The notes beneath the pieces are model-generated. The model did not search any database. It had not been told where the DNA came from and was given only the letters and a program-made list of their open reading frames with translations. A program made the position numbers and the translations under genes. From Nitrospirota bacterium (GTDB lineage: Bacteria; Nitrospirota; UBA9217): a stretch of DNA of 64,000 nt. Of this stretch, positions 1 to 17,146 are shown piece by piece. The stretch lies in assembly GCA_963840455.1 (NCBI GenBank), contig CAWIYV010000011.1, positions 533,066-597,065 on the forward strand, written 5' to 3'. Positions within the stretch are counted from its first letter, which is position 1; every line of letters starts with the position of its first letter.

Positions 1-112
1 GCAGGATCTCTTCGTATCGGAACCATGGCATGACCTCCTTACGACCCTTTCCGACAGCCTCGGTTTTTCTCTAAGCGTCTATGCACAGACGGGAAGACTT
101 ATCTTCGCTCCG

Positions 113-2002
113 TTGACCGAGCATTCACAATGCGGTAGTTTCCTCGCAACCTCACCCGGCCTCGAATCTCAGTGCAAAGTATACTGCCATCCCCGCATCA
201 TGAACGTTCTCGCAACGGGCAAGCCTGACGTCTATAAATGCCTCGCAAAGATCATATGCTTTGCACTCCCCGTCGAATACCTGGGGGAAAAAGCGGTGAT
301 CCTGGGGCGCGGGTCCTTCTCCTCGTATGAGGATTTCCGCGAATACATGAATCTCGCGACAGCCGGTGGCGTAGACGCGATCGCGATAAGAGCGCCGCTC
401 ACGTTCACCAGCCAAGAGCAGGCGTGGAAAGTATGTCGTTTTGTTCATGATACGGTGAACCGGTCCCTCCTAAACATGCAGGAGACCGCGGCACTGAGAA
501 AGAAGTTCGATAGTCTCATGAGCGTCTTCTCGCTGTGGGGCTCTGCTACCGTGGAGCAGCCCGAAATGCGGTACCAGGACATGCTCTATAATCTTTCAAC
601 GCTGCTTGACATCAATCATATCACCATCCTCGCTCTCGATCGGGAGGCGGGCAGATATACCGGTCTGTACGGCATCTCCAAGAGCGGAGCCCCGACCGAG
701 GCGATCACCATCGACGAGAATGACACCGTCGTCAAAGAGCTGCTCAGCGGAAAACCATATATTCGCACCATGACACAGGTTGCCGGACCGTCCTCCAAAG
801 CGCCTGCCGACCGCGAGTCCCGGTTTCTTTTCCCGATCCTGGTGAACAAGACCCTGGGGGGGATCCTCTGCATCACCAACCAGATCCTTCTCGATCGAGA
901 CCGGCAGATCATCGCCGGATTCTGCAAGCAGACCGCGCTTTTCATAGAGAACTATCACTTGCACCAGGACCTCTATAAAAAGTTCAACCGGTTCGCCTTG
1001 ATGTCGGAGCTAAACCGGGCGATAACGCCGATCCAGAACTATGACACACTTCTCCAGATGATCCTTGACAAGTCCGCCGAGCTGCTGAAGGCGGAGCAGG
1101 GATCGCTCATGATGCTCGACCAGAAGACCGACGCCCTGCTCCTCGAAGCGAAGAAAGGCATCATTCAGGGAGTCTCGGGGAAGATCAGCATCCAGCGCGG
1201 CGTGGGAATCGCCGGCAGAGTGGCAGAACGCGGCGAACCCTACCTGGTGAAGGACCTCGAGGACGATCCGCGTATCAAGCAGAAGAACCGGAATCATTAC
1301 CGGACCCGGTCGTTCGTCAGCGTGCCGCTCAAGATCGCAGACCGGGTCATCGGCGTGCTTAACCTGTCGGATAAGACGACCGGCGAGGTCTTCGACGAGG
1401 AGGACCTGAAGCTCATCCAGTCCATTGCGACCCACGCCGCCGTCGTCGTGGAGCGGAACGAATTTTATGCAAAATCGGAGGAGCTCAAGAAGTTGACGAT
1501 CACCGATACCCTGACCGGCCTCTTGAACCGCAGATACCTGCAAGAACGGCTCAAAGACGAACTGGCGCGGTCGGAGCGGCATATCCACCCGATGAGCCTT
1601 CTCATGCTAGACCTGGACGGATTCAAATCCTGCAATGATAGCGAAGGGCACCTCGTGGGCGACAAGATTCTTCAGGAGGTAGCCGAGACCTTATTGAAGA
1701 CGGTGCGGTCCATGGACATCGTGGCACGGTATGGCGGGGACGAGTTTATGGTGATCCTGCCGGAAACCGGCGAGCCGGTTGCAATCGAGATCGGTGAGCG
1801 CCTACGCAACAGCGTGTCCACGGGTACAGCGTGGACCCGGAAAGCGGGTTCGGGTCTGGAGCCCTGTTCCTTGACGGCCAGCATCGGCATTGTCTGTTAT
1901 CCGGAGCACGGAGAGACCGGCGAACTCCTGCTCGAGAACGTTGATAAAGCGCTGTACCGCGCCAAGAACAAGGGGAAGAACAGGATCGAGGTATTCTCTT
2001 AG
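113..2002 (+). CDS. GAF-domain diguanylate cyclase (GGDEF)
   Basis: 629-aa ORF. C-terminal GGDEF active-site motif RYGGDEFMVIL, with an upstream region of GAF-like composition. The stop at 2000-2002 directly abuts the next gene. Confidence 0.85.
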   Translation: MTEHSQCGSFLATSPGLESQCKVYCHPRIMNVLATGKPDVYKCLAKIICFALPVEYLGEKAVILGRGSFSSYEDFREYMNLATAGGVDAIAIRAPLTFTSQEQAWKVCRFVHDTVNRSLLNMQETAALRKKFDSLMSVFSLWGSATVEQPEMRYQDMLYNLSTLLDINHITILALDREAGRYTGLYGISKSGAPTEAITIDENDTVVKELLSGKPYIRTMTQVAGPSSKAPADRESRFLFPILVNKTLGGILCITNQILLDRDRQIIAGFCKQTALFIENYHLHQDLYKKFNRFALMSELNRAITPIQNYDTLLQMILDKSAELLKAEQGSLMMLDQKTDALLLEAKKGIIQGVSGKISIQRGVGIAGRVAERGEPYLVKDLEDDPRIKQKNRNHYRTRSFVSVPLKIADRVIGVLNLSDKTTGEVFDEEDLKLIQSIATHAAVVVERNEFYAKSEELKKLTITDTLTGLLNRRYLQERLKDELARSERHIHPMSLLMLDLDGFKSCNDSEGHLVGDKILQEVAETLLKTVRSMDIVARYGGDEFMVILPETGEPVAIEIGERLRNSVSTGTAWTRKAGSGLEPCSLTASIGIVCYPEHGETGELLLENVDKALYRAKNKGKNRIEVFS

Positions 2003-2003
2003 C

Positions 2004-3674
2004 ATGCTATTCAGCTCACTCCCGGAAAAGGATTTCGTCGGCAAACAGGAAGAGCTGGACGGGCTCACGAAGCGGATCGTCCTTGCGCACGGAAGCCAGG
2101 CCAGGAGCGCGGTTCTGTCAGGCCCCCGGGGCATGGGGAAGACGGAGCTGCTCAAGCAGCTTTTCGGGCGCCTGTTCTGGGGGCATGACCGCGTCGCCCC
2201 GTTCTTTTATGCGGCCAGTCCGGCGGTGCTGTCCGCGAAAGCCTTTTCCCGCACCTATCTGGTCCAGTTCCTGTCCCAGAGGCTCGCGTATCAGAAAAAG
2301 GAACAGGCCCTTCTCTACCATGACGGGATTTCGATCGATGATATAGCGACGCTCGCGGAGGAGCGGGGGGCGACGTGGGCAAGGGACATCCTTGACCGCT
2401 ATGAACGGAGCGCCTCTGAACCTCTCGATGCGCTGCGCATTGCCCTCAATGCTCCCCACCTGTCAGTGCTGGCCACCGGGACGCCGGTAGCGGTCCTGAT
2501 CGATGAGTTTCAGCGGCTCAAAGGCATCACGATCGAAGGGAACCCCGACCCCAAGCTGGTCTCTCTCTTCGAAGAGCCGATGGCTTCCGGGAAAACGCCC
2601 CATCTGATCTCCGGGAACGATCCGGAGATCCAGGAAATGGCCGTTGCGCAAGGCCTTGAACGGATACCCGTCCAGCCGCTGGGAGCCGAGAGCGCAATGT
2701 CGAGGGCTCGCGCGCTCCTCGCTGTGCATGGGGCCGAAGGCACCATACCCCATCTTCTCCTGCGGCATCTCGGCGGCAATCCCTTTTACCTGGCGTGTGT
2801 CATACGGACGGCATGTGCGAAGAAGGTCCTTGACGAGAAGGATTTCTGGAATGCCTATGTCCGGGAGATCATGGAAGGTCCTCTCTCGCTCTCGTGGTCC
2901 GCTGTCCTCAAGGACTTTTTCCCGGACCTGGAGGTGCGCAGGGCCGCCCTCGCAATGGCCTTCATGATGTGCCACGCGGCGGACCCCCACCCCCGCCGAT
3001 GGTTCGCAAAATCCCTTGGGCTGACAGACGCTCAGGTGAGCGCCACGGCGCACTCCTTGTATCTCGCCGGTCTCATCCGCGGGGAGTTCGGTGTATTCAG
3101 GGCAACGGAAGACCGGGTCGTCCGGGATATCCTTGAGGAGCTCTACCAGAAGGAGATCCTCGCAAAGTCCCGCCATGAACGGGAACGGCTCTTCCTTGAA
3201 TCATTGCTCCCGCAAAAGGAGAACGCCGTTCACTTTGAAATGACCATCCCCATGGTCAAGGAATCAGAGCTTGTCGTCGCGCAATGTCTCGAGCAGATCG
3301 GCAAGAACCTCCAACTCAACGAGGACGCCATAGGACAGATGCAGATAGCCGTGATCGAGGCATGCATCAACGCCATAGAACATGGCAAGGGAATGGATAA
3401 TAAGGTCCGGATAGTCGTTGCCGTGGAGATGGGCCGCCTTGAGGTATCGATCGAAAGCGCTGGGCCGGAGTTCATCGTGCAGGAGACCGGCGAGCCGTTT
3501 GGCGACCAGGCGGCTGCGAAGGCGTCGGGCAGAGGATGGGGCGTAAAGCTCATGAAACGCTTTGCCGATGAGGTCGTGTTCGAAAGGACCGCCCAGGGTA
3601 CGCGGACGGTCCTTATTAAAAATCTTGGAACATCCACTGGTGCGCGGAAGGAGGATACGGCAAATCGTGAGTAA
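2004..3674 (+). CDS. AAA/STAND-like NTPase fused to an RsbW/SpoIIAB-type anti-sigma serine kinase (GHKL ATPase)
   Basis: ATG at 2004 lies 2 nt after the upstream stop. N-terminal Walker A GPRGMGKTELL and Walker B VAVLIDEF. C-terminal IAVIEACINAIEHG...GRGWGVKLMKRFADEV is typical of HATPase_c anti-sigma kinases. Confidence 0.75.
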   Translation: MLFSSLPEKDFVGKQEELDGLTKRIVLAHGSQARSAVLSGPRGMGKTELLKQLFGRLFWGHDRVAPFFYAASPAVLSAKAFSRTYLVQFLSQRLAYQKKEQALLYHDGISIDDIATLAEERGATWARDILDRYERSASEPLDALRIALNAPHLSVLATGTPVAVLIDEFQRLKGITIEGNPDPKLVSLFEEPMASGKTPHLISGNDPEIQEMAVAQGLERIPVQPLGAESAMSRARALLAVHGAEGTIPHLLLRHLGGNPFYLACVIRTACAKKVLDEKDFWNAYVREIMEGPLSLSWSAVLKDFFPDLEVRRAALAMAFMMCHAADPHPRRWFAKSLGLTDAQVSATAHSLYLAGLIRGEFGVFRATEDRVVRDILEELYQKEILAKSRHERERLFLESLLPQKENAVHFEMTIPMVKESELVVAQCLEQIGKNLQLNEDAIGQMQIAVIEACINAIEHGKGMDNKVRIVVAVEMGRLEVSIESAGPEFIVQETGEPFGDQAAAKASGRGWGVKLMKRFADEVVFERTAQGTRTVLIKNLGTSTGARKEDTANRE

Positions 3675-3714
3675 TTTTTCGTTGTCATCAAAATCAACAA
3701 AGGACGCGGTCGTC

Positions 3715-4032
3715 ATGATGCCCAAAGGGTACATCAATGACATGGGAGCGGTGAGCCTGGAGCAGACAAGCGAACAGCTCCTCGGGAAGGGTGCAAAAAC
3801 GCTCATCGTGAATTTCGCCGACGTCCAATATATAAACACCATCGGGGTCTCCATTTTTACCGGCATGGTTCATAAGACACAGGAACACAACAGCGTGCTC
3901 TGCTTTACCAATTTGAAGAAGGTCCACCGGGATGTATTTGAGATGATGGGCCTGATAAAGCACGTAAAGGTGTTTAACAACGAAGAGGACGCCCTGAGGT
4001 CCTTGAGGCGAAAGGAGAGCAATGCTGAATAA
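3715..4032 (+). CDS. STAS-domain anti-sigma factor antagonist (RsbV/SpoIIAA-like)
   Basis: ~105-aa product with a STAS-like pattern (TLIVNFADVQYINTIGVSIF). AGGA lies ~10 nt upstream of the ATG. The gene sits immediately downstream of the RsbW-like kinase. Confidence 0.75.
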   Translation: MMPKGYINDMGAVSLEQTSEQLLGKGAKTLIVNFADVQYINTIGVSIFTGMVHKTQEHNSVLCFTNLKKVHRDVFEMMGLIKHVKVFNNEEDALRSLRRKESNAE

Positions 4033-5245
4033 GAAACTGGATCTCAAGCGGTTGCTGTTCAGCATGGCGTCACTGGTCGACCTGGGACAGGAAGCGACCT
4101 CCTCGAAGGACCTCAGTGCGAAAATGAAGGCGGCGCTCTACGTCATCACGGGCATGTTTTCCGTGCCGACGGCGGCCCTGTTCGTGTACCACCCTCAGCG
4201 AAAACTTCTCCGGCTCTTCGTCGAAAAAGGGCGCCGGGTCAGGGAACGGCAAGTCAAAGGGCTTCCCCTCCTTCCGGAGCACATCAAGCGATTCCGGATG
4301 AATGATCCGCATACGCTTCGCGACATGGCAGAGAGCGCCTTCTTTGTCCGGAATAAGGAGGTGTTCAGCGATCTGCAGACAACGATCTTTCTTCCCCTTT
4401 TTGCTAAAGGCGATTTCGTCGGCGCCATCGCGCTCGGCCAGAAGCTGGGGAGAGCACCCTTCCGCCAAGGGGAAAAGGACGTCCTCCGGGTGATCGCGCA
4501 TCAAATGGCGATAACCCTTCACAATGCGCGGCTGTTCCTGGAGGTGGCCAAAAAGGCCGCGGAAAACAAAAAACTCTATTCCAGCATGCAGCAGATCTAC
4601 CAGGACACCATTCAGGCCTTTGCTACCGCGATCGACGCCAAGGACGAGTATACCAAGGACCATTCTTACCGGGTGGCCAGCTATGCCGTCGCGATCGCGC
4701 GCGAGCTCGGCTGGAAAAAGAAGGATGTCGAGGGCATCTATATCGCCGGCCTTCTCCATGACATCGGGAAGATCATTATTGATGTCAAGGTCATCAATAA
4801 GGGAGCAACACTTTCGACCCCTGAGTTGACGGAGATCAGAAAGCATCCTCAGATATCGTACGATATCCTGTCAAAGATCAGGTTCCCGTGGAAAAATATC
4901 GAGAACTTCGTCCGGCACCACCATGAGCGCATGGACGGGAAAGGGTATCCCGATTCACTGAAGGAGGCGGAATTGAGCGATGGCGTAAAGATCCTCGCGC
5001 TGGTAGACGCCTTTGACGCCATGACATCAGACCGGCCATACCGGGACAAGCTTCCTGTCAGCGAGGCATTGAAGGAAGTAATGCGGTGCAAAGGGACCCA
5101 GTTCGACACCAAGATCACGAACACGTTCTTCAATGTCCTGCGCAAGGAACTGAACGGCGAGGTCAAAGAACCCCATATCCTTCCTCATTTGCATAGCCTG
5201 GACAGCAGCAAGTTCAAGGCACTTTCATCGAATTCCGCCAGGTGA
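4022..5245 (+). CDS. GAF-domain HD-GYP phosphodiesterase (c-di-GMP hydrolysis)
   Basis: HD motif LLHDIGK and HHERMDGKGYP (HD-GYP) in the C-terminal half, with a GAF-like N-terminal half. AAGGAG RBS. Start overlaps the STAS gene stop. Confidence 0.85.
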   Translation: MLNKKLDLKRLLFSMASLVDLGQEATSSKDLSAKMKAALYVITGMFSVPTAALFVYHPQRKLLRLFVEKGRRVRERQVKGLPLLPEHIKRFRMNDPHTLRDMAESAFFVRNKEVFSDLQTTIFLPLFAKGDFVGAIALGQKLGRAPFRQGEKDVLRVIAHQMAITLHNARLFLEVAKKAAENKKLYSSMQQIYQDTIQAFATAIDAKDEYTKDHSYRVASYAVAIARELGWKKKDVEGIYIAGLLHDIGKIIIDVKVINKGATLSTPELTEIRKHPQISYDILSKIRFPWKNIENFVRHHHERMDGKGYPDSLKEAELSDGVKILALVDAFDAMTSDRPYRDKLPVSEALKEVMRCKGTQFDTKITNTFFNVLRKELNGEVKEPHILPHLHSLDSSKFKALSSNSAR

Positions 5246-5723
5246 TCAGCGCATCGGGTCGCTCTTCCGTAGGTCGTTTCAATATCAATGGTGCAGGATC
5301 ATTTCTGGCAGCGCCTTCTTCGGCGCTGCCGTGCACAGCTGGCGCAATGCCTCCCGCCATCCTGCATATCACGATCAGTTCCTCACTGAGCCCGGTCCTT
5401 TACCCCTGTCTGCGGTCCTTCGCGTCGCTCAGAGCCTGTCCTGAGCATAGCGAAGATGGCTGTCCGCCTCGCTCTGCAACCGCTTGTCCTGAATCCTGTC
5501 TGTTTTTTTCCATGAACCACGCCTCCAGGCACTCTCCTGCCCCCTGATATTGTCACCGTATAAGAGTACAGGTCCGGCCATTCGAAAATCGAATACCCAC
5601 CCTCCGAGAATCATACAACGGCCTGACACACGGGGCGTATTTCCTGATGATGCATGCTCCCCGCTGGAGCACAACATCCTGTTCCTGAACGTTTTTTTTC
5701 ATCGCACGCAATACGGCGCCTTC

Positions 5724-5739
5724 TGGCACGGACAATGCA
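5724..5739 (+). promoter_or_regulatory. candidate sigma-54 (-24/-12) promoter TGGCACGGACAATGCA
   Basis: GG and GC dinucleotides separated by exactly 10 nt, in a TGGCAC-N5-xTGCA context. Lies ~50 bp upstream of the PP2C gene start at 5787. A sigma-54-dependent activator gene is present in the window (15596..16942). Confidence 0.4.
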
Positions 5740-5786
5740 ATCTATCAGACCAGTAGTACGGAAAAAATCAGCTTTGGGGGTGCCTC

Positions 5787-6695
5787 ATGATGCAACGGAT
5801 CGCCAATTTCGTCAGAGCGCTCTTCGGAATGGAGACATCCTGGAGCATCATGACTCTTTCCCGCGTCGGGATCGATCCGGTCACCGCGCGCTCTCTGACA
5901 CAGGTGCTCCAGCCCGCACACACGATACGGCTGAGACCGGAACCGGCGGAGGAAGACCCTGCAGCCGGCGTCCCCGGGCTTCTTTGGCACGGGATCACCG
6001 ACACCGGCCTCGTGAGAGACCATAATGAGGACAGCTTTTCGCTCCTCGATCTGGGGAACCGTGCGCTGTTCGTCGTGGCCGACGGCATGGGCGGCCATGA
6101 TGCCGGCGAAGTGGCGAGCCGCATCGCCGTTGATGCGGTGCGCCGGGAAGTACGCAACAACACCATGCCTTACGAGGCCCCCCTCATGACCGTTGAACGG
6201 GCGGTTCAGCAGGCAAATGCGGAGGTCAGGCGCGAAGCAGCGCGCAAGGGATCGAACATGGGCACGACGCTCTGCGTAGCGCTCGTAACCGACGGCGCGG
6301 CATATATCGGCAGCGTGGGGGACAGCAGGGCCTACTGGATGGAGAACGGTTCCATCTCCCAGATCACCGAGGACCACTCCCTGGTGGCGAAGCTGGTGGC
6401 AGCCGGGAAGTTGTCACAACAGGAGGCCAGGAACCACCCCCGGTCCAACCTGCTCTACCGCACCATCGGGACCGACGAAACGGTCAAGGCCGGCATGTTC
6501 CGGGTCGAACTGAAGAAAGGCGGCACGCTCCTGCTCTGCACTGACGGGCTCTGGGGGGATGTGGATGAGGAAGAGATCCGCAGGATCTGCACCGAAGAGC
6601 CGTATACCGAGATCGTTTGCGCCAGGCTGGTACAGCGTGCGAACGCGAACGGCGGCAAGGACAACATCACCGCAGTGGTGGTTAAGGTCCTCTGA
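5787..6695 (+). CDS. PP2C-family Ser/Thr protein phosphatase
   Basis: Motifs VVADGMGGHDAGEVAS, GTTL and TDGLW...GGKDNITAVVV. A ~70-aa N-terminal extension precedes the catalytic domain, so the true start may be internal. Confidence 0.85.
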   Translation: MMQRIANFVRALFGMETSWSIMTLSRVGIDPVTARSLTQVLQPAHTIRLRPEPAEEDPAAGVPGLLWHGITDTGLVRDHNEDSFSLLDLGNRALFVVADGMGGHDAGEVASRIAVDAVRREVRNNTMPYEAPLMTVERAVQQANAEVRREAARKGSNMGTTLCVALVTDGAAYIGSVGDSRAYWMENGSISQITEDHSLVAKLVAAGKLSQQEARNHPRSNLLYRTIGTDETVKAGMFRVELKKGGTLLLCTDGLWGDVDEEEIRRICTEEPYTEIVCARLVQRANANGGKDNITAVVVKVL

Positions 6696-6768
6696 TGGCG
6701 AAGCCCCGCGCATGGCTCCTGGAATGAATGAAATACAAGGTCCAACGTTGTAAAAGGAGGTACAGAAC

Positions 6769-8019
6769 ATGAAGAACGAACTGAACATCCGATGCGTCAT
6801 GAGCAAGGATGCGCTGACGGTGACCGGGGCGGAGCAGGCGGTCTATGCGCTCGTGGATATCAAGGCGGTGAGCAGCGGACAGCACCGCACCATGCCGGCG
6901 AACTTCGGCCTGGTGCTCGACCGGAGCGGCTCCATGGACGGCGAGAAGATGGAGAATCTGAAGGAGGCAGCGGGCTACGTGGTGGACCACTTGAATGATA
7001 ACGACCTCGTTTCCGTTACGGTCTTCGATGACCAGGTCGAGACGATTATCCCGAACCAGCCCCTGAAGGACCGCGAAGAGGTCAAGTCCCGGCTCGGATC
7101 GGTCATCCCCCGCGGCGGCACCCAGATCTCGGACGGGCTCAAGGCCGGTCTGGCGGAGGCCTGGAAGGGATTCTCCAAGGACCGCGTAAACCGCATACTC
7201 CTGCTCACCGACGGCCAGACGTGGGACGATGAGGCCGCGTGCCTCACGCTCGCCGACGAGGCAGGAAGAAAGGGCATCGCCGTTACGAGCATCGGCATCG
7301 GCGATGAGTGGAATGAGAAGCTCCTGCTCCAGCTCGCCGAGCGCTCTCACGGCAATTCGCACTGGATCCAGAATCCCATCGCCATCCTCGACGCGTTCCG
7401 GCAGGAGGTCGAGGGGGCGCAATCTGTCGCGGCAACGAACCTCAGCATGACGGCGCGCATGAGCCCGGGAGTCAAACCGGTGAAGGCATACGCCACCATG
7501 CCCATGATCTCCGACATGAGCACGAAGGCCGTGAACGGTCAGAACATCATGGCCGACCTGGGCTCCCTGGACAGCAGGCGGGGACAGGCAATGCTCATTG
7601 AAGTGCGAGTACCGCCCCAAAAGGCCGGCAAATTCCGGCTGGGCCAGGTAGAGGTCACCTATGACGTGCCCTCCCGGGGGATCAAGGGGCAAAGCGTCAA
7701 GGCGGACCTGTTCGTCATGTTCACTGATGACGCCGCAGCCGCGGCAAAGGTGAACGCCGAGGCGATGAACCTCGTTGAGAAGGTGAGCGCTTTCAAGCTC
7801 CAGACCCGGGCGCTCACCGAGGCCGAGGCGGGCAATATCGCCGCAGCGACGCAGAAGCTTCAGTCCGCTGCCACGGTACTTCTGAACCTGGGCGAGGACG
7901 AGCTCGCCGAGGCGGCGGAGAAGGAGATCCTGTCGCTCAAGAGGACCGGGGCCTTCACCGCAGCAGGGACGAAGAAGCTCGAATACGGCACCCGAAAACT
8001 GACGCAGGCATTGAAATAA
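6769..8019 (+). CDS. von Willebrand factor type A (vWA) domain protein
   Basis: MIDAS motif LVLDRSGSMDG, plus ILLLTDGQTWDDE. Strong AGGAGG RBS before the ATG. The C-terminal half is helical and low-complexity. Confidence 0.8.
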   Translation: MKNELNIRCVMSKDALTVTGAEQAVYALVDIKAVSSGQHRTMPANFGLVLDRSGSMDGEKMENLKEAAGYVVDHLNDNDLVSVTVFDDQVETIIPNQPLKDREEVKSRLGSVIPRGGTQISDGLKAGLAEAWKGFSKDRVNRILLLTDGQTWDDEAACLTLADEAGRKGIAVTSIGIGDEWNEKLLLQLAERSHGNSHWIQNPIAILDAFRQEVEGAQSVAATNLSMTARMSPGVKPVKAYATMPMISDMSTKAVNGQNIMADLGSLDSRRGQAMLIEVRVPPQKAGKFRLGQVEVTYDVPSRGIKGQSVKADLFVMFTDDAAAAAKVNAEAMNLVEKVSAFKLQTRALTEAEAGNIAAATQKLQSAATVLLNLGEDELAEAAEKEILSLKRTGAFTAAGTKKLEYGTRKLTQALK

Positions 8020-8110
8020 TTGCATAGGGCAGAGAGATGACCGCAATGGCTTGAACGCCATGCTCTCTGCGCCATGCGCTATGCATGATCCTAAAAAGGA
8101 GGACATACCC

Positions 8111-8554
8111 ATGAAATGCACAGAGTGTCAGACGGAGTACATCGAAGGCGCGCTCTTCTGCGAGGAATGCGGGGCGAAGATCGGGACCGCGAGTCAACTG
8201 ATTGACGCTGCAGGAACAATGGCCGATAAAGGGACGGCCCTGGTGCTCGCGTCCCCCGGCGGCGGTACGCTGGACATCCCGGACAAGGACGAAGTGGTCA
8301 TCGGCAGGGAAGACCCCATCAGCGAGGTGTTCCCCGACGTGGACCTGACAGACCTCGGCGGCATGGAGAACGGTGTATCGCGCAAGCACGCGGTCATCCA
8401 TCGGTCAGGAACGGACTATACCGTTGAGGACATGGGCTCCACGAACGGGACCTATATCAATAAAAAACGCATCCAGCCCCATGTGCCGCAGGCGATCAAG
8501 GCCGGCGACGAGGTCAGGTTCGGCAAACTGGCATTCTCGCTCGAGGCGGCATAA
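8111..8554 (+). CDS. zinc-ribbon plus FHA domain protein
   Basis: N-terminal CTECQ...FCEECGAK zinc ribbon. C-terminal FHA pattern (VVIGRED...GVSRKHAVI...STNGTYIN...VRFG). AAGGAGG RBS before the ATG at 8111; the ORF is open further upstream but without an RBS. Confidence 0.75.
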   Translation: MKCTECQTEYIEGALFCEECGAKIGTASQLIDAAGTMADKGTALVLASPGGGTLDIPDKDEVVIGREDPISEVFPDVDLTDLGGMENGVSRKHAVIHRSGTDYTVEDMGSTNGTYINKKRIQPHVPQAIKAGDEVRFGKLAFSLEAA

Positions 8555-8665
8555 CGCGAATGCAGAGCGCGGAATTCGGAGTGCGGAGTGATGAATCTAA
8601 AGAAGGAACCTGTTCTTATTCCGCATTCCGCACTCACCATTCCGCATTATGAAACGGAGGTACCA

Positions 8666-10918
8666 ATGCCCAGGCTCACTTATAAGACACTCGTCTACGG
8701 CGCGGCAGGGGCTTTCGGCGGATCAGCCGCCTGGGCCTTTGTCCTGGCCTTGTCCCAGACCATGCGCAGCGGTCTCCTGACCGAGATAGCGCTCGGCTCG
8801 ATCGTGGGCATGTTCATCGGCGGGTTCGTCTGGAGCCACGAGGCCATTACCGGAAGGCAGTTCCGCACCGCGCTCGAGCGCGCGGCCTTCGGCGCTCTGG
8901 CCGGCATCCTGGGCGGAGGGCTCGGCGCGGGTCAAGGCAATACGGTCTTTTCCGCACTCGGACGATACGTAGCGAACCTGGGCGGGTTCCGCGCGTCCCT
9001 GGGCATTGCCCTCTCCGTGGCCCTGGGATGGGCGGTCCTGGGGGCCGCGATCGGCATCAGCGGCGGCTTAATGGTCCGCTCCCGCTCGCGCGCCTGGTAC
9101 GGCCTGGCCGGCGGATCCCTGGGAGGATTTCTCGGAGGCTTTCTGTTCAATGCCCTCTCGACAACGAACGTCTGGTCGGCCCTGGCAGGTCTTACCCTGC
9201 TCGGGCTTTCCATCGGCGCTTTCATCAGTCTCGTCGAGGAAGCCTTTGTCTCGGCAAAGGTGAAAGTGATCAAGGGACGGCACCTGGGCAGGGAGTTCCC
9301 GCTCCTCAAGGAACTGAGCGTCATCGGCCGCGATGACCGCTCAGATGTCTGTCTTTCCGGCGCCGAAGGCGTAGCGAACCAGCACGCAGGCATCCGGCGG
9401 AACAACGGCCATTTCATCATCGAGACCGACGAAGAGGGAAAACCCGTGTACGTGAACCAGAAGATGACGCGGAACAGCAGGCTCGCCGATGGCGATGTCA
9501 TCCGCGTGGGCAGCATCCTGCTCATGTTCTCGGCGGTCAGGAAAGCAGTGGCGATCGCAGCCGTGACCGTCATGCTGTGCCTCTCCGTGGTGGCAGGGAG
9601 TACGGCACTGGCGGCCGGACCCGCATCAGCCCAGATCACCCAGTTCGACCTGAGCGGTTTCCCGACAGTGAAGATGTATGTTTCCGTACTTGATGCGGAC
9701 GGCAACCCGGTCCGCGGCCTGAGCAAGGAAGCGGTGACGCTCAGCGAGAACGGACGCCCCGTCGCGGTGGACGCGATGCAGATGACCGGGACGAAAGTCA
9801 CGCGCGAGCCCTTGAGCCTTGCCATTGTGGTGGACCGGAGCGAGTCCATGACCGGCGAAAAAATCGAACACGCCAGGGAATCGGTCGACCGTTTTCTTTC
9901 GCTCATGCAGCAGGGAGACCGGGCAGCCCTCATCGCCTTCAGCGATTCCATCGTGAAGCTCGAATCACTGACTGACAACATCGGACTTCTCAGGCAGGCG
10001 ACGGCCGCCATCCGGCCCGGCGGGCACACTGCGCTCTACGATGCCGTGGTTGCCGGCGTGGCCTCGGTCCAGGGAGTACCGGGCAGGCGGGCAGTGATCG
10101 TCCTGACCGACGGGATCGCCAACCGCGGCTCCCTCGACATCGACCAGGCAATCGCCGCAGCTGCTAAAGAGTACGTCTCAGTCTCCGTCATCGGCCTGGG
10201 CAAGGACGTCCGGGCATCTCGGCTCGAGCGGATCGCCATAGAGACCGGGGGCTCCTACTTTTTTACGCCCTCCGCCGTCGGACTGATGGATATCTACGAT
10301 ACCATCGGCAACAGGATCCGGAACGAGTACGCCGTCACCTTCGTGACCGAAAAGCGGGCTGCATACCTCCGTAACCTTTGGCTCACCCTTGCTTCAGGCC
10401 AACATGCAACACGCTCCTATTTCCAGCCCCAGTCCTCGCTCTTCGGTGCCGGTAGCATGCTGCCCCCATGGGCCTTTGCCGTCCCTCTTGCGAGCATACT
10501 GGGGCTTGTGGCCGTCTCGCTCCGCAGGGTGGAGCGGTACTACGAGACCGGCCATCTGAGCCTCGTGCGCGGCACGGGCACGAAGAAGGACATCAATATC
10601 AATTCCCGTGTGACCATTGGAAGGGACGAGCGTAATACCCTCGGCCTCTTCAAGGACAGCGGCATCGACCAGCGGCACGCCGAGGTCGTCCGGGAGAGCG
10701 GCAAATATATTATCGAGGACAAGGGTTCTGCTGCCGGGACCTACGTGAACAAGACCCGCGTCGCGGGCAGGCAGGCGCTTCAGGACGGCGACGTCATCAC
10801 CATGGGCAACGCCACCATCATATTCAGCGAGGAGACCAGGCCGACCTGTCCTGACTGCGGCGGCGCCCTGAGGCCGAAGGCGAAGTTCTGCGCCAAGTGT
10901 GGAGCGAAACAGGCTTAG
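8666..10918 (+). CDS. large membrane protein with Gly-zipper TM segments, FHA, vWA, second FHA and a C-terminal double zinc ribbon
   Basis: GGAGG RBS before the ATG at 8666. Domain order read from the translation: a Gly/Ala-rich TM block, FHA-like (SVIGRDDRSDVCL...VANQHAGI...VIRVG), another TM segment, vWA MIDAS (LAIVVDRSESMTG...VIVLTDG), a further TM segment, a second FHA (VTIGRDERNTL...RHAEV...GTYVNKTRV), then CPDCGG...FCAKCGAK. Confidence 0.75.
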   Translation: MPRLTYKTLVYGAAGAFGGSAAWAFVLALSQTMRSGLLTEIALGSIVGMFIGGFVWSHEAITGRQFRTALERAAFGALAGILGGGLGAGQGNTVFSALGRYVANLGGFRASLGIALSVALGWAVLGAAIGISGGLMVRSRSRAWYGLAGGSLGGFLGGFLFNALSTTNVWSALAGLTLLGLSIGAFISLVEEAFVSAKVKVIKGRHLGREFPLLKELSVIGRDDRSDVCLSGAEGVANQHAGIRRNNGHFIIETDEEGKPVYVNQKMTRNSRLADGDVIRVGSILLMFSAVRKAVAIAAVTVMLCLSVVAGSTALAAGPASAQITQFDLSGFPTVKMYVSVLDADGNPVRGLSKEAVTLSENGRPVAVDAMQMTGTKVTREPLSLAIVVDRSESMTGEKIEHARESVDRFLSLMQQGDRAALIAFSDSIVKLESLTDNIGLLRQATAAIRPGGHTALYDAVVAGVASVQGVPGRRAVIVLTDGIANRGSLDIDQAIAAAAKEYVSVSVIGLGKDVRASRLERIAIETGGSYFFTPSAVGLMDIYDTIGNRIRNEYAVTFVTEKRAAYLRNLWLTLASGQHATRSYFQPQSSLFGAGSMLPPWAFAVPLASILGLVAVSLRRVERYYETGHLSLVRGTGTKKDININSRVTIGRDERNTLGLFKDSGIDQRHAEVVRESGKYIIEDKGSAAGTYVNKTRVAGRQALQDGDVITMGNATIIFSEETRPTCPDCGGALRPKAKFCAKCGAKQA

Positions 10919-10935
10919 GGTAGGACCGATAACCC

Positions 10936-10964
10936 TTGACACGGACAAGGGCGGATCTTACATA
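10936..10964 (+). promoter_or_regulatory. candidate sigma-70 promoter (TTGACA-17-TACATA) for the kinase gene
   Basis: TTGACAcggacaagggcggatctTACATA lies ~110 bp upstream of the kinase start. Confidence 0.3.
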
Positions 10965-11075
10965 TGAAGAAGCATGATCAAAACTTTGCCCTATCAGCTC
11001 TTTTTTCAGGGTTCTGATCGGCCTCGATCAGCATCAAAGATCTTCTTTAAAGTGGCTATGTACGGAGGTCATACT

Positions 11076-12260
11076 ATGAGCCGGCTGCTGAAAAATAGAT
11101 ACGAGATCATCGGCCTCCTCGGTACGGGCGGGATGGGCTCTGTCTACAAGGTCGCTGACCGGGACTGGAAAGGCAGGATCCTGGCTGCCAAGGAGCTCCG
11201 TTCCGACGGGCTTTCTCTGGTGAAGGCGCAGGAGGCCCTCACCCAGTTCCAGACCGAAGCAAGGATCCTGGCGCGGCTCACGCACCCGAACCTTCCCAAG
11301 GTCTACGACTACTTCAGCTTGCCGGGAAGGCATTACATCATCATGGAATACGTGAAGGGAAAGACGCTGGAAGCGTTGCTTCGCAGCCGCAAGGGGCAGC
11401 CCGTGGATGAACGACTGGCCCTGTCCTGGGCGCTCCAGATCTGCCGGGCCATGCAGTTCCTGAGCGTCCAGAAGCCGCCCGTCGTGTTCCGCGACCTCAA
11501 GCCCTCAAACATCATGATCGAACCGGACGGCAAGGTCAAGTTGATCGATTTCGGCATCGCCCGGTTCTTCAAGGAGGATAAGCGGGAGGACACTTATGTG
11601 TACGGCACGCCGGGGTATGCTGCGCCCGAGCAGTACGGCACAGGCCAGACCAATGTGCGCTCCGACATCTTCTCCCTTGGCGCCACGCTCCACCACTGCC
11701 TTACTGGAAGGGATCCCTCGGAAAGCCCTCTCGAGTTTCCTGATGCTCGGTCGCTGAACCCAAATTTGAACAAGGGAACCTCCCGGATCCTCACGAAGGC
11801 GCTCGACCTGGAGATGGGCAGGCGGTACAAAACACCCCTCGATATGAAACGGGCGCTCCAGAGCGTGCTCCGGAACATCGAGATATTGCCGCGGGGTGTT
11901 GACAACGTCATCCATGCCGAGCCGGGAAAGCCCATCACGTTGCCGTGGTGGAAGAAGACCAGTTGGGTGAGCGTGCCGGTGATGGCACTCGGATGCAGCG
12001 GTACAACGGGTACGCTGTCGTCCGATGACCGTTGGCTCCATCCCAGGCCCAAGGCCTTCAGCCACGGTTCGTCGCAGCTTCTGTTCCGCGTCGACGGGGC
12101 AAAGCTCAGGATGGGAAGGGAGTACCACCCGCGGATCACCGTGTGCACCGATGCCGGCATTCTCCGGCCGCAGTTGTCCTTCAAGCGGCCATGGCCATGG
12201 ATGCTGATCGAAGCGGCGATCATTGCGGCGGCTCTAGCAGGGTTGTTCATGATAAGGTAA
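11076..12260 (+). CDS. Hanks-type Ser/Thr protein kinase with a C-terminal TM anchor
   Basis: Motifs GLLGTGGMGSVYK, HPNLPKVYDYF, FRDLKPSNIMI, KLIDFGIAR and GTPGYAAPEQ. GGAGG RBS 7 nt before the ATG at 11076. Hydrophobic C-terminus. Confidence 0.85.
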   Translation: MSRLLKNRYEIIGLLGTGGMGSVYKVADRDWKGRILAAKELRSDGLSLVKAQEALTQFQTEARILARLTHPNLPKVYDYFSLPGRHYIIMEYVKGKTLEALLRSRKGQPVDERLALSWALQICRAMQFLSVQKPPVVFRDLKPSNIMIEPDGKVKLIDFGIARFFKEDKREDTYVYGTPGYAAPEQYGTGQTNVRSDIFSLGATLHHCLTGRDPSESPLEFPDARSLNPNLNKGTSRILTKALDLEMGRRYKTPLDMKRALQSVLRNIEILPRGVDNVIHAEPGKPITLPWWKKTSWVSVPVMALGCSGTTGTLSSDDRWLHPRPKAFSHGSSQLLFRVDGAKLRMGREYHPRITVCTDAGILRPQLSFKRPWPWMLIEAAIIAAALAGLFMIR

Positions 12261-12784
12261 GGAAAAGACTCACTGACGAGAAGATTCCGCTTGTTGCGCA
12301 AACCTTCTCGTATAGGGAACATCATCATTAGCACTATTTAACAGCCTGTTCGTGCTTCTCCTCCCATTGCGCCAAGCAACAGGGATAACAACTTCCCCCA
12401 TATATCCGAAAAGTTTTGCAGATTGCTGAAAGAGTCCAGGATTGTCATTGCGAGGAGCGATTTGTGCGACGAAGCAATCTCTAAGCACCTGATATGTTTA
12501 ACTGCAAGATTGCTTCGCTACGCTCGCAAAGACAGTAAATAAGTCTTTTTCAATGACCTGTTAAATCCGCACCATGATCTCCTGCACTGATCCTGTACGA
12601 TGACCTGTAATGACCTCCCAGAACCAATAAGCCCGCACTGAAGGGTATCTTCACCTCTCTAGATATAAATATACAATAAATACAATATGTTATATGCTTG
12701 TCTAGCAAAAAACAAATTAAACTTGACAAAACTATTAAAATTAGTTAAGCTATTTACCATAGAACTACAAAGGAGGGACCTGAT

Positions 12785-13507
12785 ATGAAAGATCGACTGA
12801 TCGCGCTATTTGCCGCCCTGTTTACTGCATTTATCGCCCTGATTCTTGGAGGGTCATTGCTCGGCTTCGCCTATGGAGATCCCGGCGCCATCGGTGGCGG
12901 ATATCCAGCAACGAATCAGCCCGTCATCAATGAAAAGACCGGCGAGCTGGGAACAGACATCTTCAGACTGGTCGGCGATGGCCAGGCCCCCGTACTTTCG
13001 GAGGATGGAACACAGATCGCCTACTACGACGACAACTATCAGATCTGGACAGTGCAGGTAAACGGCAGCGGGCGTACGAAGCTTACCTCAGGGTACTTCG
13101 ATCTGTACCCTTCCTGGTCGCCGGACGGAAAGAGGATCGCCTTTCGTCGCAGCACCATGATCGAAGGCAGCAGTCACAGCGACATCTGGATCATGAACAG
13201 TGATGGCTCCGATCAGATGCCGTTGACCGATGCCCTGAGTACGCAAGGGGCCTATGACCGACCTGCATGGTCGCCCGATGGAACGAAGATCGCCATGGAG
13301 GCTGCTGTCGACGGAATGATGAGCGAGATCTATATCATCGACGTCAACACGAAAGTGCTCTTTAACGTGACCGCCGGGAACAGCCGGGACAGCAATAGGA
13401 TCAACCACCAGTCCCCCTCATGGCTTGCGGATGGCGAGCAGATCGCTCTTATCCGGAACGATGACTTTGCCATCATAAGGACTGACGGCACGGGACTGAA
13501 ACAGTGA
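12785..13507 (+). CDS. TolB-like periplasmic beta-propeller (PD40/WD40-like repeat) protein with an N-terminal TM segment
   Basis: Repeated PSWSPDGKRIAF / PAWSPDGTKIA motifs. AAGGAGG RBS. Preceded by an AT-rich promoter island. Confidence 0.7.
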   Translation: MKDRLIALFAALFTAFIALILGGSLLGFAYGDPGAIGGGYPATNQPVINEKTGELGTDIFRLVGDGQAPVLSEDGTQIAYYDDNYQIWTVQVNGSGRTKLTSGYFDLYPSWSPDGKRIAFRRSTMIEGSSHSDIWIMNSDGSDQMPLTDALSTQGAYDRPAWSPDGTKIAMEAAVDGMMSEIYIIDVNTKVLFNVTAGNSRDSNRINHQSPSWLADGEQIALIRNDDFAIIRTDGTGLKQ

Positions 13508-13579
13508 ATCGGAGGGAAGAACGTCAGGCGCGCGGAACTGGCAGAGAATACCGTCCTAGGTATTATGGTGTAAATTCAC

Positions 13580-13621
13580 TAACCGTTATGATATAATGGC
13601 GTTACTTGAGTAACCGTTATG
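13580..13621 (+). promoter_or_regulatory. pilin promoter region: TATAAT box flanked by two TAACCGTTATG direct repeats
   Basis: Repeat copies at 13580-13590 and 13611-13621. TATAAT at 13592-13597. The second repeat ends 10 nt before the pilin ATG. Confidence 0.4.
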
Positions 13622-13631
13622 CGGTAAGATT

Positions 13632-13835
13632 ATGATGAAGAACATGAAGGGCTTTACGCTTATCGAACTCCTGATTGTGGTGGCCATCATCGCCGTTCTG
13701 GCGGCAGTTGCCATCCCGCAGTTCGCGTCATATCGTGTGAAGGCCTACAACGCAGCGGCCCAAACCGATCTCAGAAATTTCAAGGCTCAGATGGAATCCG
13801 TAATGGTTGAACGGATGGTCTATCCTACCTTTTAA
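13632..13835 (+). CDS. pilA: truncated type IVa major pilin (Geobacter PilA-N / e-pilin type)
   Basis: 67-aa product. Class III signal peptide ends in G, followed by FTLIELLIVVAIIAVLAAVAIPQFASYRVKAYNAAAQTDLRNF. Closely resembles the short Geobacter sulfurreducens PilA as remembered (not verified here). Confidence 0.8.
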   Translation: MMKNMKGFTLIELLIVVAIIAVLAAVAIPQFASYRVKAYNAAAQTDLRNFKAQMESVMVERMVYPTF

Positions 13836-14044
13836 CAAACCAAAACAACCTTAACGCGGACCTGGCCATTGCTGGTCATTGATGCTGGTTTAATCGTGGT
13901 GCTGTCGCGGTAATGCTGATGGTGAAGTAGAGCAGGTGGAGACACTGAGGGATTCACCTACAATCTGAAACGGTGACGGTCAATGGGAAATGCAGAATAT
14001 CAGTTGAAACATGCACATAACGAAAATCCAGCGGGGATATTGAT

Positions 14045-14076
14045 CCCCGCTGGATTGATTTGAGCAATAGGCTCCT
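14045..14076 (-). terminator. perfect 14-bp stem / 4-nt loop hairpin, likely terminator of the 14165..15283 gene
   Basis: AATCCAGCGGGGAT-attg-ATCCCCGCTGGATT. The minus-sense transcript would continue UUUUCGUU after the stem. Confidence 0.45.
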
Positions 14077-14164
14077 AAATGGTTGTCATTGTTTTATGGC
14101 ATCACAATTATTGCACTATGAAGTCTCGCTGCAATAACCTTATGCCCTGCTGCAACACTGCAGT

Positions 14165-15283
14165 TTAATCTTCGGTGTTCTTTTCCTTCTTGTGATCAAT
14201 CGGCTCTGTACACTCATATTCAACTTCTACCCTGGCTGCAAGGAAGTTGGTGCTTGCGCTATCATATCCGTACAGCTTGACCTCAATCCATGCGTCGTTG
14301 GCAAGAGTTCCCTTGACAACTGCCTTGCTGAAGTCAACAGTCATCGTTTTTCCCTTTTTGTAGGTGAGGGTTAAGGTATGGTTCGTTGTCGTATAATTTG
14401 AAACCAATCCCTCCACTTTCACAAAGATCTCGGATGCCTCGATAGTCTTGTTAGCATAATCGATGGTCGAGGTCGTAACCAGTGTTCTCAAGCCATCCTG
14501 CTGAGCACGTTGGAGAAGATCGTCAAGAGCCGGTTGCTGAGACGATGTGATGCCCGAATACAACACCGTGAACGAACGAGGATGCCTCGAAAGGGTGAAT
14601 GCATCGGTTGATGTGGTCAGATTCACGACGAGGCCGGTAATTGCCTCGTGACGGTAAAGGCGCTCGAACTCATTTCCGTGGATAGGCGACACTTTCATGG
14701 TTACAGAGCACGACGGGGTGCCGAAGTTATCGACATCAAAATCTTTCAGCCTGAAATCGAGCGCAACTTTGTTGTAGTGGTTTACCAGCACGTTGACTGC
14801 GCCGTTGATGTCCAGTGAGCAAGAGTCTCCGTTGCAATACAGCCTGTTCACATGGTTGGCTTCGTCCTTATAGGATGTGAAGGAGCAAGTCGACTTGGTC
14901 ACGGCACTGTCCATGAGTTCAACGGACTTGTCAAATTCGATATGCAGCCTGTTGTAAGGCACTGCAGGGCATTCGGCAATGCTCAAAAGCTGCAACACAT
15001 TAGATAGATTAGCAATGTCGATCTTCAGCGGCGTCGATGGCGTCGTCATTGTCGTCAATACGTCACAAGTTGCGGTGCTGCCTGTATTCAGGACGGTCAC
15101 CTTGTTGATGGTCACGATCACCTGCTTATAATCCGACATGTTATCGGTGGCGTAGAGAGCCACCGTGCCGGTCGAAGCTCCTCCCCCGCTGTTCCCGCCG
15201 CTGCAGGAGTTGAACACGGTGACCGCTATAATGAGCAGTACTGTTCCCGCAATGACACTGATAAATGCATTTCTTTTACTCAT
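14165..15283 (-). CDS. secreted hypothetical protein (signal peptide, Thr/Ser/Asn-rich)
   Basis: 372-aa ORF. N-terminal hydrophobic signal followed by CSGGNSGGG. No recognisable catalytic motif. Convergent with the pilin gene. Confidence 0.55.
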   Translation of the reverse strand: MSKRNAFISVIAGTVLLIIAVTVFNSCSGGNSGGGASTGTVALYATDNMSDYKQVIVTINKVTVLNTGSTATCDVLTTMTTPSTPLKIDIANLSNVLQLLSIAECPAVPYNRLHIEFDKSVELMDSAVTKSTCSFTSYKDEANHVNRLYCNGDSCSLDINGAVNVLVNHYNKVALDFRLKDFDVDNFGTPSCSVTMKVSPIHGNEFERLYRHEAITGLVVNLTTSTDAFTLSRHPRSFTVLYSGITSSQQPALDDLLQRAQQDGLRTLVTTSTIDYANKTIEASEIFVKVEGLVSNYTTTNHTLTLTYKKGKTMTVDFSKAVVKGTLANDAWIEVKLYGYDSASTNFLAARVEVEYECTEPIDHKKEKNTED

Positions 15284-15595
15284 GACGCACCTCCTCCTTT
15301 TCTCGTCAGATGTTACGGCAGCGTTTGCTTGGCATCTTCATGATGTGTAATTCTGCGGTAGTAATATAATATATTTTATTATACCACTGAAAATGGCGCC
15401 CTTGTGTAACGGCCCCGGTTTTCTTGGACACGGATCTGTGGTAAATCATATGTCCGAGTTGAAGTATTTCAGAAAAATGAGAAGACGGGTAATTGAGGGG
15501 ATGACGAATTACGACTAAATGAGACATTGAATATTACAAAGAATTGAAACAACAACAGTTACAGGAAGTTGCTCGCTCGTCGTCAGACGCTACTG

Positions 15596-16942
<1,347 letters not shown>

Positions 16943-17146
16943 ATCGACATTGTATCACAAGACAGGGGAAATGATGATACCGAAGAGATCGGCCGACCAT
17001 GCCCTCATTGAAGTTCCCTGAAGCAAGCTGCTAGGAATACCTCGCTCCTGGATTCAGGGGTACGACGCATGCTTTGACCTTGACCTTTCCCCGGGAGTGT
17101 CTTATCATATTTTCCATCTGACCTTGGAACGCGGAGGGAACGACCG

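Follow-up and report, generated by a model that had tools for sequence, protein, structure and literature searches.

In the partner-switching systems of Bacillus (RsbW-RsbV and SpoIIAB-SpoIIAA), a kinase sequesters a sigma factor and is countered by an antagonist, a single-domain STAS protein with a conserved, phosphorylatable Ser/Thr. Partner switches have also been linked to cyclic di-guanosine monophosphate (c-di-GMP), with stressosome-linked cyclases as a further precedent. In the HptB-HsbR-HsbA-HsbD system of Pseudomonas aeruginosa, phospho-HsbA binds the cyclase HsbD, and the kinase and phosphatase reside on the response regulator HsbR (PMC5085249). SiaABCD of P. aeruginosa and BgrR-BgrSTUWV of Sinorhizobium meliloti consist of an operon-encoded trio of kinase, phosphatase, and STAS-like protein with one c-di-GMP enzyme and no sigma factor; unphosphorylated SiaC activates SiaD, and BgrV controls BgrR (PMC8457831). 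In these three cases, the STAS-type protein regulates its c-di-GMP enzyme by binding it directly. The known c-di-GMP partner switches thus all act on cyclases, and the regulation of HD-GYP phosphodiesterases is poorly understood. Here, we describe a four-gene cassette that joins an RsbW-type kinase and a STAS protein with both kinds of enzyme. It lies at the start of a 64,000-nucleotide stretch of Nitrospirota DNA (assembly GCA_963840455.1, contig CAWIYV010000011.1, positions 533,066 to 597,065 of the forward strand), hereafter called the window, to which coordinates without a locus name refer.

Judged from domain content and gene order, the four genes (g1 to g4) rather probably form one device that sets c-di-GMP through a phospho-switch of the partner-switching type, in which no sigma factor takes part. 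The parts of the cassette are listed below.

2 to 2002, + strand: g1, PocR, about 190 aa without assignment, GAF, and GGDEF diguanylate cyclase (Pfam, NCBIfam, motifs)
About 2 to 451, about 1022 to 1471, and about 1487 to 1999, + strand: PocR, GAF, and GGDEF domains of g1 (Pfam)
2004 to 3674, + strand: g2, AAA+ ATPase fused to an RsbW/SpoIIAB-type kinase domain, 556 aa (Pfam, profile search, AlphaFold2 model, Foldseek)
Residues 1 to about 400 of g2, + strand: AAA+ ATPase with lid and winged-helix, Orc1/Cdc6-, PF01637-, or STAND-like (AlphaFold2 model, Foldseek)
2121 to 2147 and 2493 to 2510, + strand: Walker A (GPRGMGKTE) and Walker B (VLIDEF) of g2
Residues about 407 to 545 of g2, + strand: RsbW/SpoIIAB-type GHKL Ser/Thr kinase domain (Pfam, profile search, Foldseek)
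3354 to 3383, 3453 to 3473, and 3528 to 3551, + strand: N-box (IEACINAIEH), G1-like box (ESAGPEF), and G2 box (GRGWG) of the g2 kinase
3667 to 4032, + strand: g3, single-domain STAS protein with anti-sigma-antagonist fold, 121 aa (Pfam, NCBIfam)
4022 to 5245, + strand: g4, GAF and HD-GYP, predicted c-di-GMP phosphodiesterase, 407 aa (Pfam, motifs)

Composition of the cassette

The four genes are packed at positions 2 to 5245 and are translationally coupled, as seen from the listing of open reading frames (ORFs), their translation, and Pfam. The junctions measure +1 nt (g1/g2), -8 nt (g2/g3), and -11 nt (g3/g4), and this spacing is identical in relatives (gene contexts of six close homologs). 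An earlier sequence-only reading of this DNA had described four contiguous, nearly overlapping genes of these domain types, and Pfam confirms all four; that reading had missed the PocR domain of g1 and the resemblance of the g2 NTPase to Orc1/Cdc6 or STAND proteins. The g1 start had been placed at position 113, which is merely the first in-frame TTG: the reading frame already runs from base 2, and with the residues thus added at the N-terminus the PocR domain is complete. Because g1 relatives measure 674 to 677 aa, about 10 codons of g1 should lie upstream of the window. The g2 start is most likely ATG 2004, 1 nt past the g1 stop. The g3 gene starts at GTG 3667 (with the Shine-Dalgarno sequence AGGAGG at 3649 to 3654) and shares 8 nt with the end of g2, and g4 starts at ATG 4022 within an 11-nt overlap with g3. 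By motif reading, the catalytic motifs are intact in all enzymes of the cassette.

In g2, Pfam finds AAA_16/ATPase_2 at the N-terminus and HATPase_c_2 (3e-16) at the C-terminus. A profile of 28 g2 homologs matches over residues 413 to 545 both B. subtilis RsbW (6m36, E=2.8e-9) and SpoIIAB. Furthermore, an AlphaFold2 model of g2 was built from 51 homologs (mean predicted local distance difference test score of 85) and compared to the Protein Data Bank by Foldseek. Residues 1 to about 400 were best matched by a DNA-bound archaeal Orc1/Cdc6 (2qby), followed by the PF01637-type Walker ATPases 2qen and 2fna and also by the NB-ARC domains of plant NLRs and Apaf-1, at identities that are low throughout (11-16%). 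The C-terminal domain matched SpoIIAB and RsbW with a target template modeling score (TM-score) of 0.7-0.9. Walker A residues G43, G45, K46, and T47 and Walker B residue D167 are invariant in an alignment spanning 25-100% identity; in a larger, 51-sequence alignment, this still holds for G45 and D167, with conservation of 90% or more for G43 and K46. Among g2 homologs, the N-box (E452, N456) and the G2 box (RGWG) of the kinase are nearly invariant, and the G1 box is atypical (ESAGxEF versus the usual DxGxG).

Like the STAND and Orc1/Cdc6-like ATPases (2qen, 2fna, NB-ARC), g2 has a P-loop core with Walker A and B motifs, a helical lid, and a winged-helix domain in its first 400 or so residues. 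Unlike in STAND ATPases, a repeat sensor arm (TPR, WD40, or LRR) was not found in g2 by Pfam, and residues 400 to 556, in the place of the C-terminal effector, form the RsbW-type kinase. Interpretation of the STAND-like ATPase as part of a defense system was considered and rejected, as PADLOC returned nothing for g1 to g3 and only generic HD matches for g4.

The STAS domain of g3 is recognized by Pfam at 1.2e-11, so that both members of the HATPase_c/STAS pair proposed in the sequence-only reading are borne out by the domain scan. The predicted phospho-acceptor of g3 is Thr58 (codon 3838-3840, within the motif INTIG at 3832 to 3846), which occupies the position of Ser58 in SpoIIAA. The acceptor column holds Thr in close relatives (INTIG) and Ser in distant ones (INSIG), with one or the other in 63 of 63 distinct homologs. 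Hence g3 has the features of a partner-switch antagonist, that is, a single STAS domain with a conserved Ser/Thr that is predicted to be phosphorylatable. Measured against the NCBIfam models, g3 reaches 39 bits on TIGR00377 (cutoff 53) and 37.2 bits on the SpoIIAA equivalog (cutoff 114.75), and g2 reaches 34.8 bits on RsbW (cutoff 145) and 28.7 bits on SpoIIAB (cutoff 135). As the scores on RsbW, SpoIIAB, and SpoIIAA fall far under these cutoffs, g2 and g3 are domain-level relatives of the Bacillus proteins and not their orthologs.

The cassette therefore resembles RsbW-RsbV and SpoIIAB-SpoIIAA in its kinase fold, N-box, and G2 box, in the STAS Ser/Thr at the SpoIIAA-Ser58 position, and in a kinase gene that is followed or overlapped by the STAS gene. 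It differs from them in that it has neither a sigma target nor an RsbU/SpoIIE-type phosphatase in the operon, in that the kinase makes up the last quarter of a 556-aa AAA+ fusion protein, and in that the order of kinase, then STAS, is set between c-di-GMP enzymes on both sides.

On the upstream side, g1 gives Pfam matches to GGDEF (3e-48) and GAF (5e-24) and a sub-threshold match to PocR, and it scores 174 bits on the GGDEF model TIGR00254. The I-site and active site read RSMD-IVARY-GGDEF at 1706 to 1747, with RxxD five residues before GGDEF, and this RxxD-x5-GGDEF arrangement is kept in 48 of 50 distinct g1 homologs. The PocR domain contains a C-x13-C-x3-C-x17-C motif (131 to 241, residues 44-80), whose four cysteines reach a conservation of 90% or more among 43 distinct homologs, which suggests a metal, Fe-S, or redox-sensing site. 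Between PocR and GAF (401 to 1060, residues about 134-353), some 190-220 aa gave no Pfam match even at E<=1; the region is conserved across all cyclases of architectures A and C (see the next section). On the downstream side, g4 matches HD_5/HD at 2e-34. Its motifs HDIGK (4757 to 4771) and HHERMDGKGYP (4919 to 4951) are both kept in 51 of 51 distinct homologs. The earlier statement that both enzymes carry GAF sensors holds, with the N-terminal GAF of g4 being marginal (23-25 bits versus a cutoff of 22.4) and clearer in relatives. From their motifs, g1 is thus an active-looking cyclase and g4 an active-looking HD-GYP phosphodiesterase, one on either side of the switch.

Conservation and three architectures

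More than 300 close homologs of g2 were found, nearly all of exactly 556 aa; the named ones mostly come from Nitrospirota metagenome-assembled genomes, and the best public annotation is 'anti-sigma regulatory factor'. A HMMER scan of 1.84 billion cluster representatives gave 99 g2-family matches at E<=1e-30. These matches include a second length class, mostly of about 720-830 aa and overall of 709-851 aa (for example P0138, P0143, P0170, and L088), in which about 200 extra residues without a Pfam match are placed between the ATPase part and the kinase.

Searching genome contigs with the single g2 protein yielded one locus (L001), and scanning metagenomes with an alignment of diverse g2 sequences added 80 further loci at 98-28% identity. 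Overall, about 90 related loci (27-98% identity) were compared by seed mapping, ORF clustering, and motif tables; 58 of them, all but one at >=44% identity, make up the closer group. Across these loci, the kinase-STAS pair stays with the HD-GYP gene and usually with the PocR-GGDEF gene down to 27% identity; a search for such neighborhood conservation had been proposed as a check in the sequence-only reading.

In architecture A, all four genes are present. It is found in every locus at >=44% identity except L049, and of the evaluable loci in the closer group, 50 of 50 have a STAS gene after g2 and 41 of 41 have an HD-GYP gene. The upstream GGDEF gene was scored by the script in 47 of 50 and is read as present in 49 of 50, because the gene in L052/L053 lies about 350 nt upstream, past the distance limit of the script; L049 is the only evaluable locus of the group that truly lacks it. 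The long g2 class also has this architecture (L088, 8001-10352), as probably does L089, whose upstream gene is without Pfam annotation. Six close homologs (59-86% identity) share the same four genes within six different flanks. In L005, the supercluster of Hanks-kinase, FHA, and PP2C genes that lies downstream of the cassette in the window is found upstream of it, and genes matching 20693 to 24831 (histidine-kinase, AMP-binding) are found downstream. Since the cassette is intact there despite its moved flanks, it behaves as a unit.

Architecture B consists of g2, STAS, and GAF-HD-GYP with no linked cyclase and was found in at least 20 loci at 28-32% identity, with named members from Syntrophus, Deltaproteobacteria, Thermodesulfovibrionales, Ca. 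Sulfobium, and Acidobacteriota. Here, the neighbors of the trio are housekeeping genes (trigger factor, FtsK, LolA, and TsaD). Architecture C is the reverse: PocR-GGDEF and g2 are kept without STAS and HD-GYP, and the next genes are convergent (L062, L075, L082, and L084). The N-box and G2 box of the kinase are destroyed in all four of these loci and are intact in every locus that has STAS and HD-GYP. Moreover, g3 and g4 directly adjoin or overlap each other in almost every locus. As STAS and HD-GYP travel with an intact kinase (B) and the cyclase travels with the ATPase part despite a decayed kinase (C), the system can be read as modular; this pattern supports STAS being tied most tightly to the HD-GYP enzyme and the ATPase part of g2 to the cyclase.

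Proposed mechanism and its alternatives

Because the gene set is conserved in many anaerobes without a sigma factor, switching of a second messenger rather than of transcription is probable. In the mechanism that we propose, the kinase domain of g2 would bind g3 and phosphorylate Thr58, and the phospho-state of g3 would partition it between the kinase and the GAF-HD-GYP enzyme, thereby turning c-di-GMP degradation on or off. The AAA+/STAND-like ATPase of g2 may be a nucleotide-driven switch or an oligomerization platform that controls the kinase, and it may separately couple to the PocR-GAF-GGDEF cyclase. Synthesis and degradation would then be reciprocally regulated (push-pull), with PocR (Cys4), the GAF sensor domains, and the state of the ATPase as inputs. 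A phosphatase encoded nearby or elsewhere would reset the phosphorylated STAS protein; lineage-specific candidates would be a small Stp1-like PP2C and a dual-specificity or protein tyrosine phosphatase-like (DSP/PTP-like) enzyme. The earlier idea that the RsbW/STAS pair works on c-di-GMP turnover and not on a sigma factor thus fits the comparative data, and the wiring drawn for it is a deduction.

A more far-reaching version, which we put forward tentatively and hold to be possible though doubtful, makes the AAA+-RsbW fusion a nucleotide-driven hub that assembles the cyclase and the HD-GYP enzyme into a c-di-GMP 'signalosome'. The ATPase module would hold or control the cyclase, the kinase would toggle the HD-GYP enzyme via Thr58 of the STAS protein, and one protein would flip the balance between net synthesis and net degradation. 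If true, control of an HD-GYP enzyme by a partner switch would be shown for the first time, and bacterial second-messenger signaling would gain its first STAND-like ATPase whose effector is a protein kinase.

Several points weigh against the proposed device. Its wiring is deduced from gene linkage, and this linkage would be compatible with STAS acting on the phosphodiesterase, on the cyclase, or on both. The atypical G1 box means that the kinase may be a poor enzyme or a mere binding domain. The cassette encodes no phosphatase, and none is found within 10 kb in most relatives of architecture A. In one distant locus (L073) the kinase is intact, yet neither STAS nor HD-GYP follows downstream. 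Finally, the metagenome loci are kin by descent and include some duplicates (L002=L003=L019), so that the counts overstate the number of independent events.

Among the alternatives, one may first consider that STAS acts on the cyclase in the manner of HsbA-HsbD, SiaC-SiaD, or BgrV-BgrR and that the HD-GYP enzyme, co-transcribed with it, is an antagonist under regulation of its own. All characterized links between partner switches and c-di-GMP found in the literature search target cyclases, and g1 is in the operon of all loci of architecture A. However, STAS stays with HD-GYP in the loci of architecture B, where no cyclase is linked, and it is absent from architecture C, where the cyclase and g2 persist; the overlapping or abutting g3 and g4 genes point in the same direction. 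We therefore regard this explanation as unlikely. The HsbA-HsbD pair, to which the sequence-only reading had appealed, remains a valid precedent for the control of a cyclase by STAS and is probably not the closest model for the wiring, given that HD-GYP co-varies with STAS. Altogether, that reading is partly supported: it was right on the main idea and probably wrong on the enzyme that STAS addresses, and its typing of a nearby PP2C was wrong (see below).

In a classical anti-sigma arrangement, the RsbW domain of g2 would sequester a sigma factor encoded elsewhere, g3 would be the antagonist, and the c-di-GMP genes would only be co-expressed. The domains are indeed homologous to RsbW/SpoIIAB and RsbV/SpoIIAA, and the public annotation of the relatives points the same way. 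Against this, both proteins score far under the respective equivalog cutoffs, and the kinase has no sigma factor to sequester at the cassette. As the sequence-only reading had stated for the operon, a seed search found no sigma gene there, nor anywhere in positions 1 to 22000. An upstream sigma gene that co-occurs with the cassette in relatives would have spoken for this arrangement, and there is none in about 5.8 kb upstream of g1 in the 96% relative L001, where Ham1, Adk (adenylate kinase), and ATP sulfurylase lie on the opposite strand, and none upstream in the 86% relative, which has the same genes plus adenosine 5'-phosphosulfate (APS) reductase.

In favor of the anti-sigma arrangement, a sigma-70-family gene was found 0.9-1.7 kb upstream in one subclade at 59-60% identity (L002=L003=L019, L004, L007, and L038). 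With 343 bits on the RpoS/RpoD models versus 120 on the SigB/F/G model (cutoff 234), however, its product is RpoS/RpoD-like, and gaps or PEP-CTERM genes lie between this gene and g1. RpoS/RpoD-like sigma factors are not the class that RsbW-type anti-sigma factors are known to bind in the Bacillus systems. This subclade is the only one with a linked sigma gene on the same strand among 30 close loci with >=4.5 kb of upstream sequence; the sigma gene of L048 is unrelated, lies on the opposite strand, and is over 5 kb distant. A sigma gene occurs in none of 15 distant loci with >=4.5 kb upstream, and ORF clustering gave no sigma-like cluster among the conserved neighbors. The anti-sigma arrangement is accordingly quite improbable.

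It could also be argued that g2 is a DNA-binding, transcriptional AAA+ protein tuned by its kinase and by STAS, with the c-di-GMP enzymes as its regulon or sensors. The best structural match of its N-terminal part is a DNA-bound Orc1/Cdc6, followed by PF01637-type proteins with a winged-helix. These matches have only 11-16% identity and extend equally to the NB-ARC domains of NLRs and Apaf-1, which do not bind DNA. Furthermore, neither a conserved DNA motif nor a set of target genes emerged, and g2 is strictly linked to enzymes and not to variable regulons; we thus consider this explanation very improbable. That the four genes are chance neighbors is hardly credible even if GGDEF and HD-GYP genes are generally abundant in such genomes, for the genes keep their order, their orientation, and their near-overlap in dozens of loci, as far down as 27-32% identity and within unrelated flanks, an arrangement that, on this comparative evidence, is far beyond chance.

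Relation to known systems and significance

What the cassette would share with HsbA-HsbD is the control of a c-di-GMP enzyme by the phospho-state of a STAS protein that binds it directly; its AAA+ ATPase and its HD-GYP enzyme are not present in the Hsb system. Like SiaABCD and the BgrR system, the cassette combines an operon-encoded kinase and STAS protein with a c-di-GMP enzyme and no sigma factor. Those systems differ from it in that their targets are the cyclases SiaD and BgrR, that a PP2C (SiaA, BgrU) is encoded in the operon, that SiaC is a DUF1987 protein and not a canonical STAS, and that both an AAA+ fusion and a phosphodiesterase are missing. The cassette is therefore set apart from known systems by three features, namely the fusion of kinase and ATPase, the HD-GYP enzyme that co-varies with STAS, and the cyclase and phosphodiesterase that bracket the switch. 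In the literature available as full text, with most subscription journals outside this coverage, no account was found of HD-GYP together with STAS, RsbW, or anti-sigma factors or of STAND together with RsbW. Partner-switch control of c-di-GMP itself is known; what looks unreported is the fusion of ATPase and kinase, together with the link to HD-GYP.

The trio of g2, STAS, and HD-GYP occurs in Nitrospirota (Thermodesulfovibrionia-like sulfate reducers), Syntrophus-like Deltaproteobacteria, and other anaerobes. It offers a testable system for the phospho-control of c-di-GMP degradation and for the reciprocal control of synthesis and degradation from one operon, as well as for the role of an Orc1/STAND-like ATPase fused to an anti-sigma-type kinase. 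In addition, hundreds of database entries from these phyla that bear the name 'anti-sigma regulatory factor' or 'RsbW' are probably unconnected with sigma factors.

Phosphatase candidates

Two features follow the cassette directly.

5246 to 5786, no strand: gap of 540 bp between the cassette and the next gene cluster (promoter, terminator, and Rfam scans)
5787 to 6695, + strand: Stp1/IreP-type PP2C phosphatase (NF033484, Pfam)

The sequence-only reading had suggested the PP2C at 5787 as the cognate RsbU-type phosphatase. It scores 254.6 bits on the Stp1/IreP equivalog NF033484 (cutoff 230), and in Pfam PP2C_2 (75 bits) and PP2C (51) rank above SpoIIE (30). The gene heads a cluster at 5787 to 12260 that encodes the PP2C, a VWA protein, a Zn-ribbon-FHA protein, a TM-FHA-VWA-FHA-Zn-ribbon protein (TM, transmembrane), and a Hanks-type serine/threonine kinase (STK), as is seen for Stp1/IreP/PstP-type PP2Cs that accompany Hanks kinases and FHA proteins. 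A PP2C of this type stands beside the cassette in L001, L022, and the P0006 locus and is missing from 29 of 31 close loci with >=3.2 kb of downstream sequence. Given its Stp1/IreP score, its linkage to VWA, FHA, and STK genes, and its absence from most relatives, the PP2C is not of the RsbU type and lies outside the conserved unit.

Small PP2Cs are nevertheless linked to the trio elsewhere. Stp1-like PP2Cs of about 260 aa (205 and 180 bits, below the cutoff) directly adjoin the trio of architecture B in ten loci, all from one clade, and are oriented in either of two ways (divergent upstream or convergent downstream). Unlike in the Stp1/Hanks modules, there is no Hanks kinase nearby, and a second role of the PP2C at 5787 on the phosphorylated STAS protein is therefore possible. 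A gene for a DSPc/PTP-like phosphatase is found upstream of the trio in L090/L091. This recurrent linkage of non-orthologous phosphatases fits a phosphorylated STAS protein that needs to be reset. Identity to the trio-flanking PP2Cs is 31-35% for the PP2C at 5787 and for the one at 17546 alike, so this comparison does not discriminate between them, and either the one at 5787 or another PP2C of the window is a possible candidate phosphatase for phosphorylated g3.

The gap at 5246 to 5786 contains no terminator-like site and no Rfam match; one weak promoter-like site is located at 5623 to 5651, and an 82-aa minus-strand ORF (5429 to 5677) has no family match. Promoter and terminator scans of positions 1 to 13000 gave no more matches than shuffled sequence and are therefore uninformative on co-transcription of the PP2C.

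Neighboring genes and other observations

Beyond the Hanks-kinase cluster, there is a second module with a PP2C (17546 to 18307) and an STK (18552 to 19892), and a divergent sigma54 activator with an N-terminal FHA domain is encoded at 15596 to 16942 on the minus strand. The region 5787 to 19892 looks like a circuit around an FHA-gated enhancer-binding protein.

In L002, L004, and L007 (59-60% identity), the cassette is located between a Zn-ribbon response regulator plus the RpoS/RpoD-like sigma gene on one side and a PEP-CTERM/exopolysaccharide export locus (Poly_export, Wzz/GNVR, TPR, and PEP-CTERM proteins) on the other, flanks which hint at matrix production as one output of the cassette. 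Other c-di-GMP genes (EAL, PilZ, and GGDEF-EAL) are sporadic neighbors in the relatives, and seed searches for DSP-like phosphatase, EAL, and PilZ genes returned sporadic neighbors only. Examples include L090 (6681-12471), where the DSPc/PTP-like phosphatase gene lies directly upstream of the trio and an EAL gene directly downstream; L094 (10198-11497), where a PP2C is co-oriented with a PilZ-domain gene near the trio; and L065 (2-670), which has a weak PilZ-like ORF just upstream of it.

Genes for ATP sulfurylase, APS reductase, and adenylate kinase are found upstream of the cassette in its closest relatives (L001, 2051-4866; P0006 locus), which makes a sulfate-reducing Nitrospirota bacterium of the Thermodesulfovibrionia type the most likely source.

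The presence of a c-di-GMP riboswitch or another RNA element close to the operon was considered and rejected, since the only Rfam match in the 64 kb is a cspA thermoregulator (RF01766) at 25086 to 25478 on the minus strand (84.2 bits versus a gathering score of 78). In relatives, a cold-shock-domain gene is present at the position that matches this thermoregulator.

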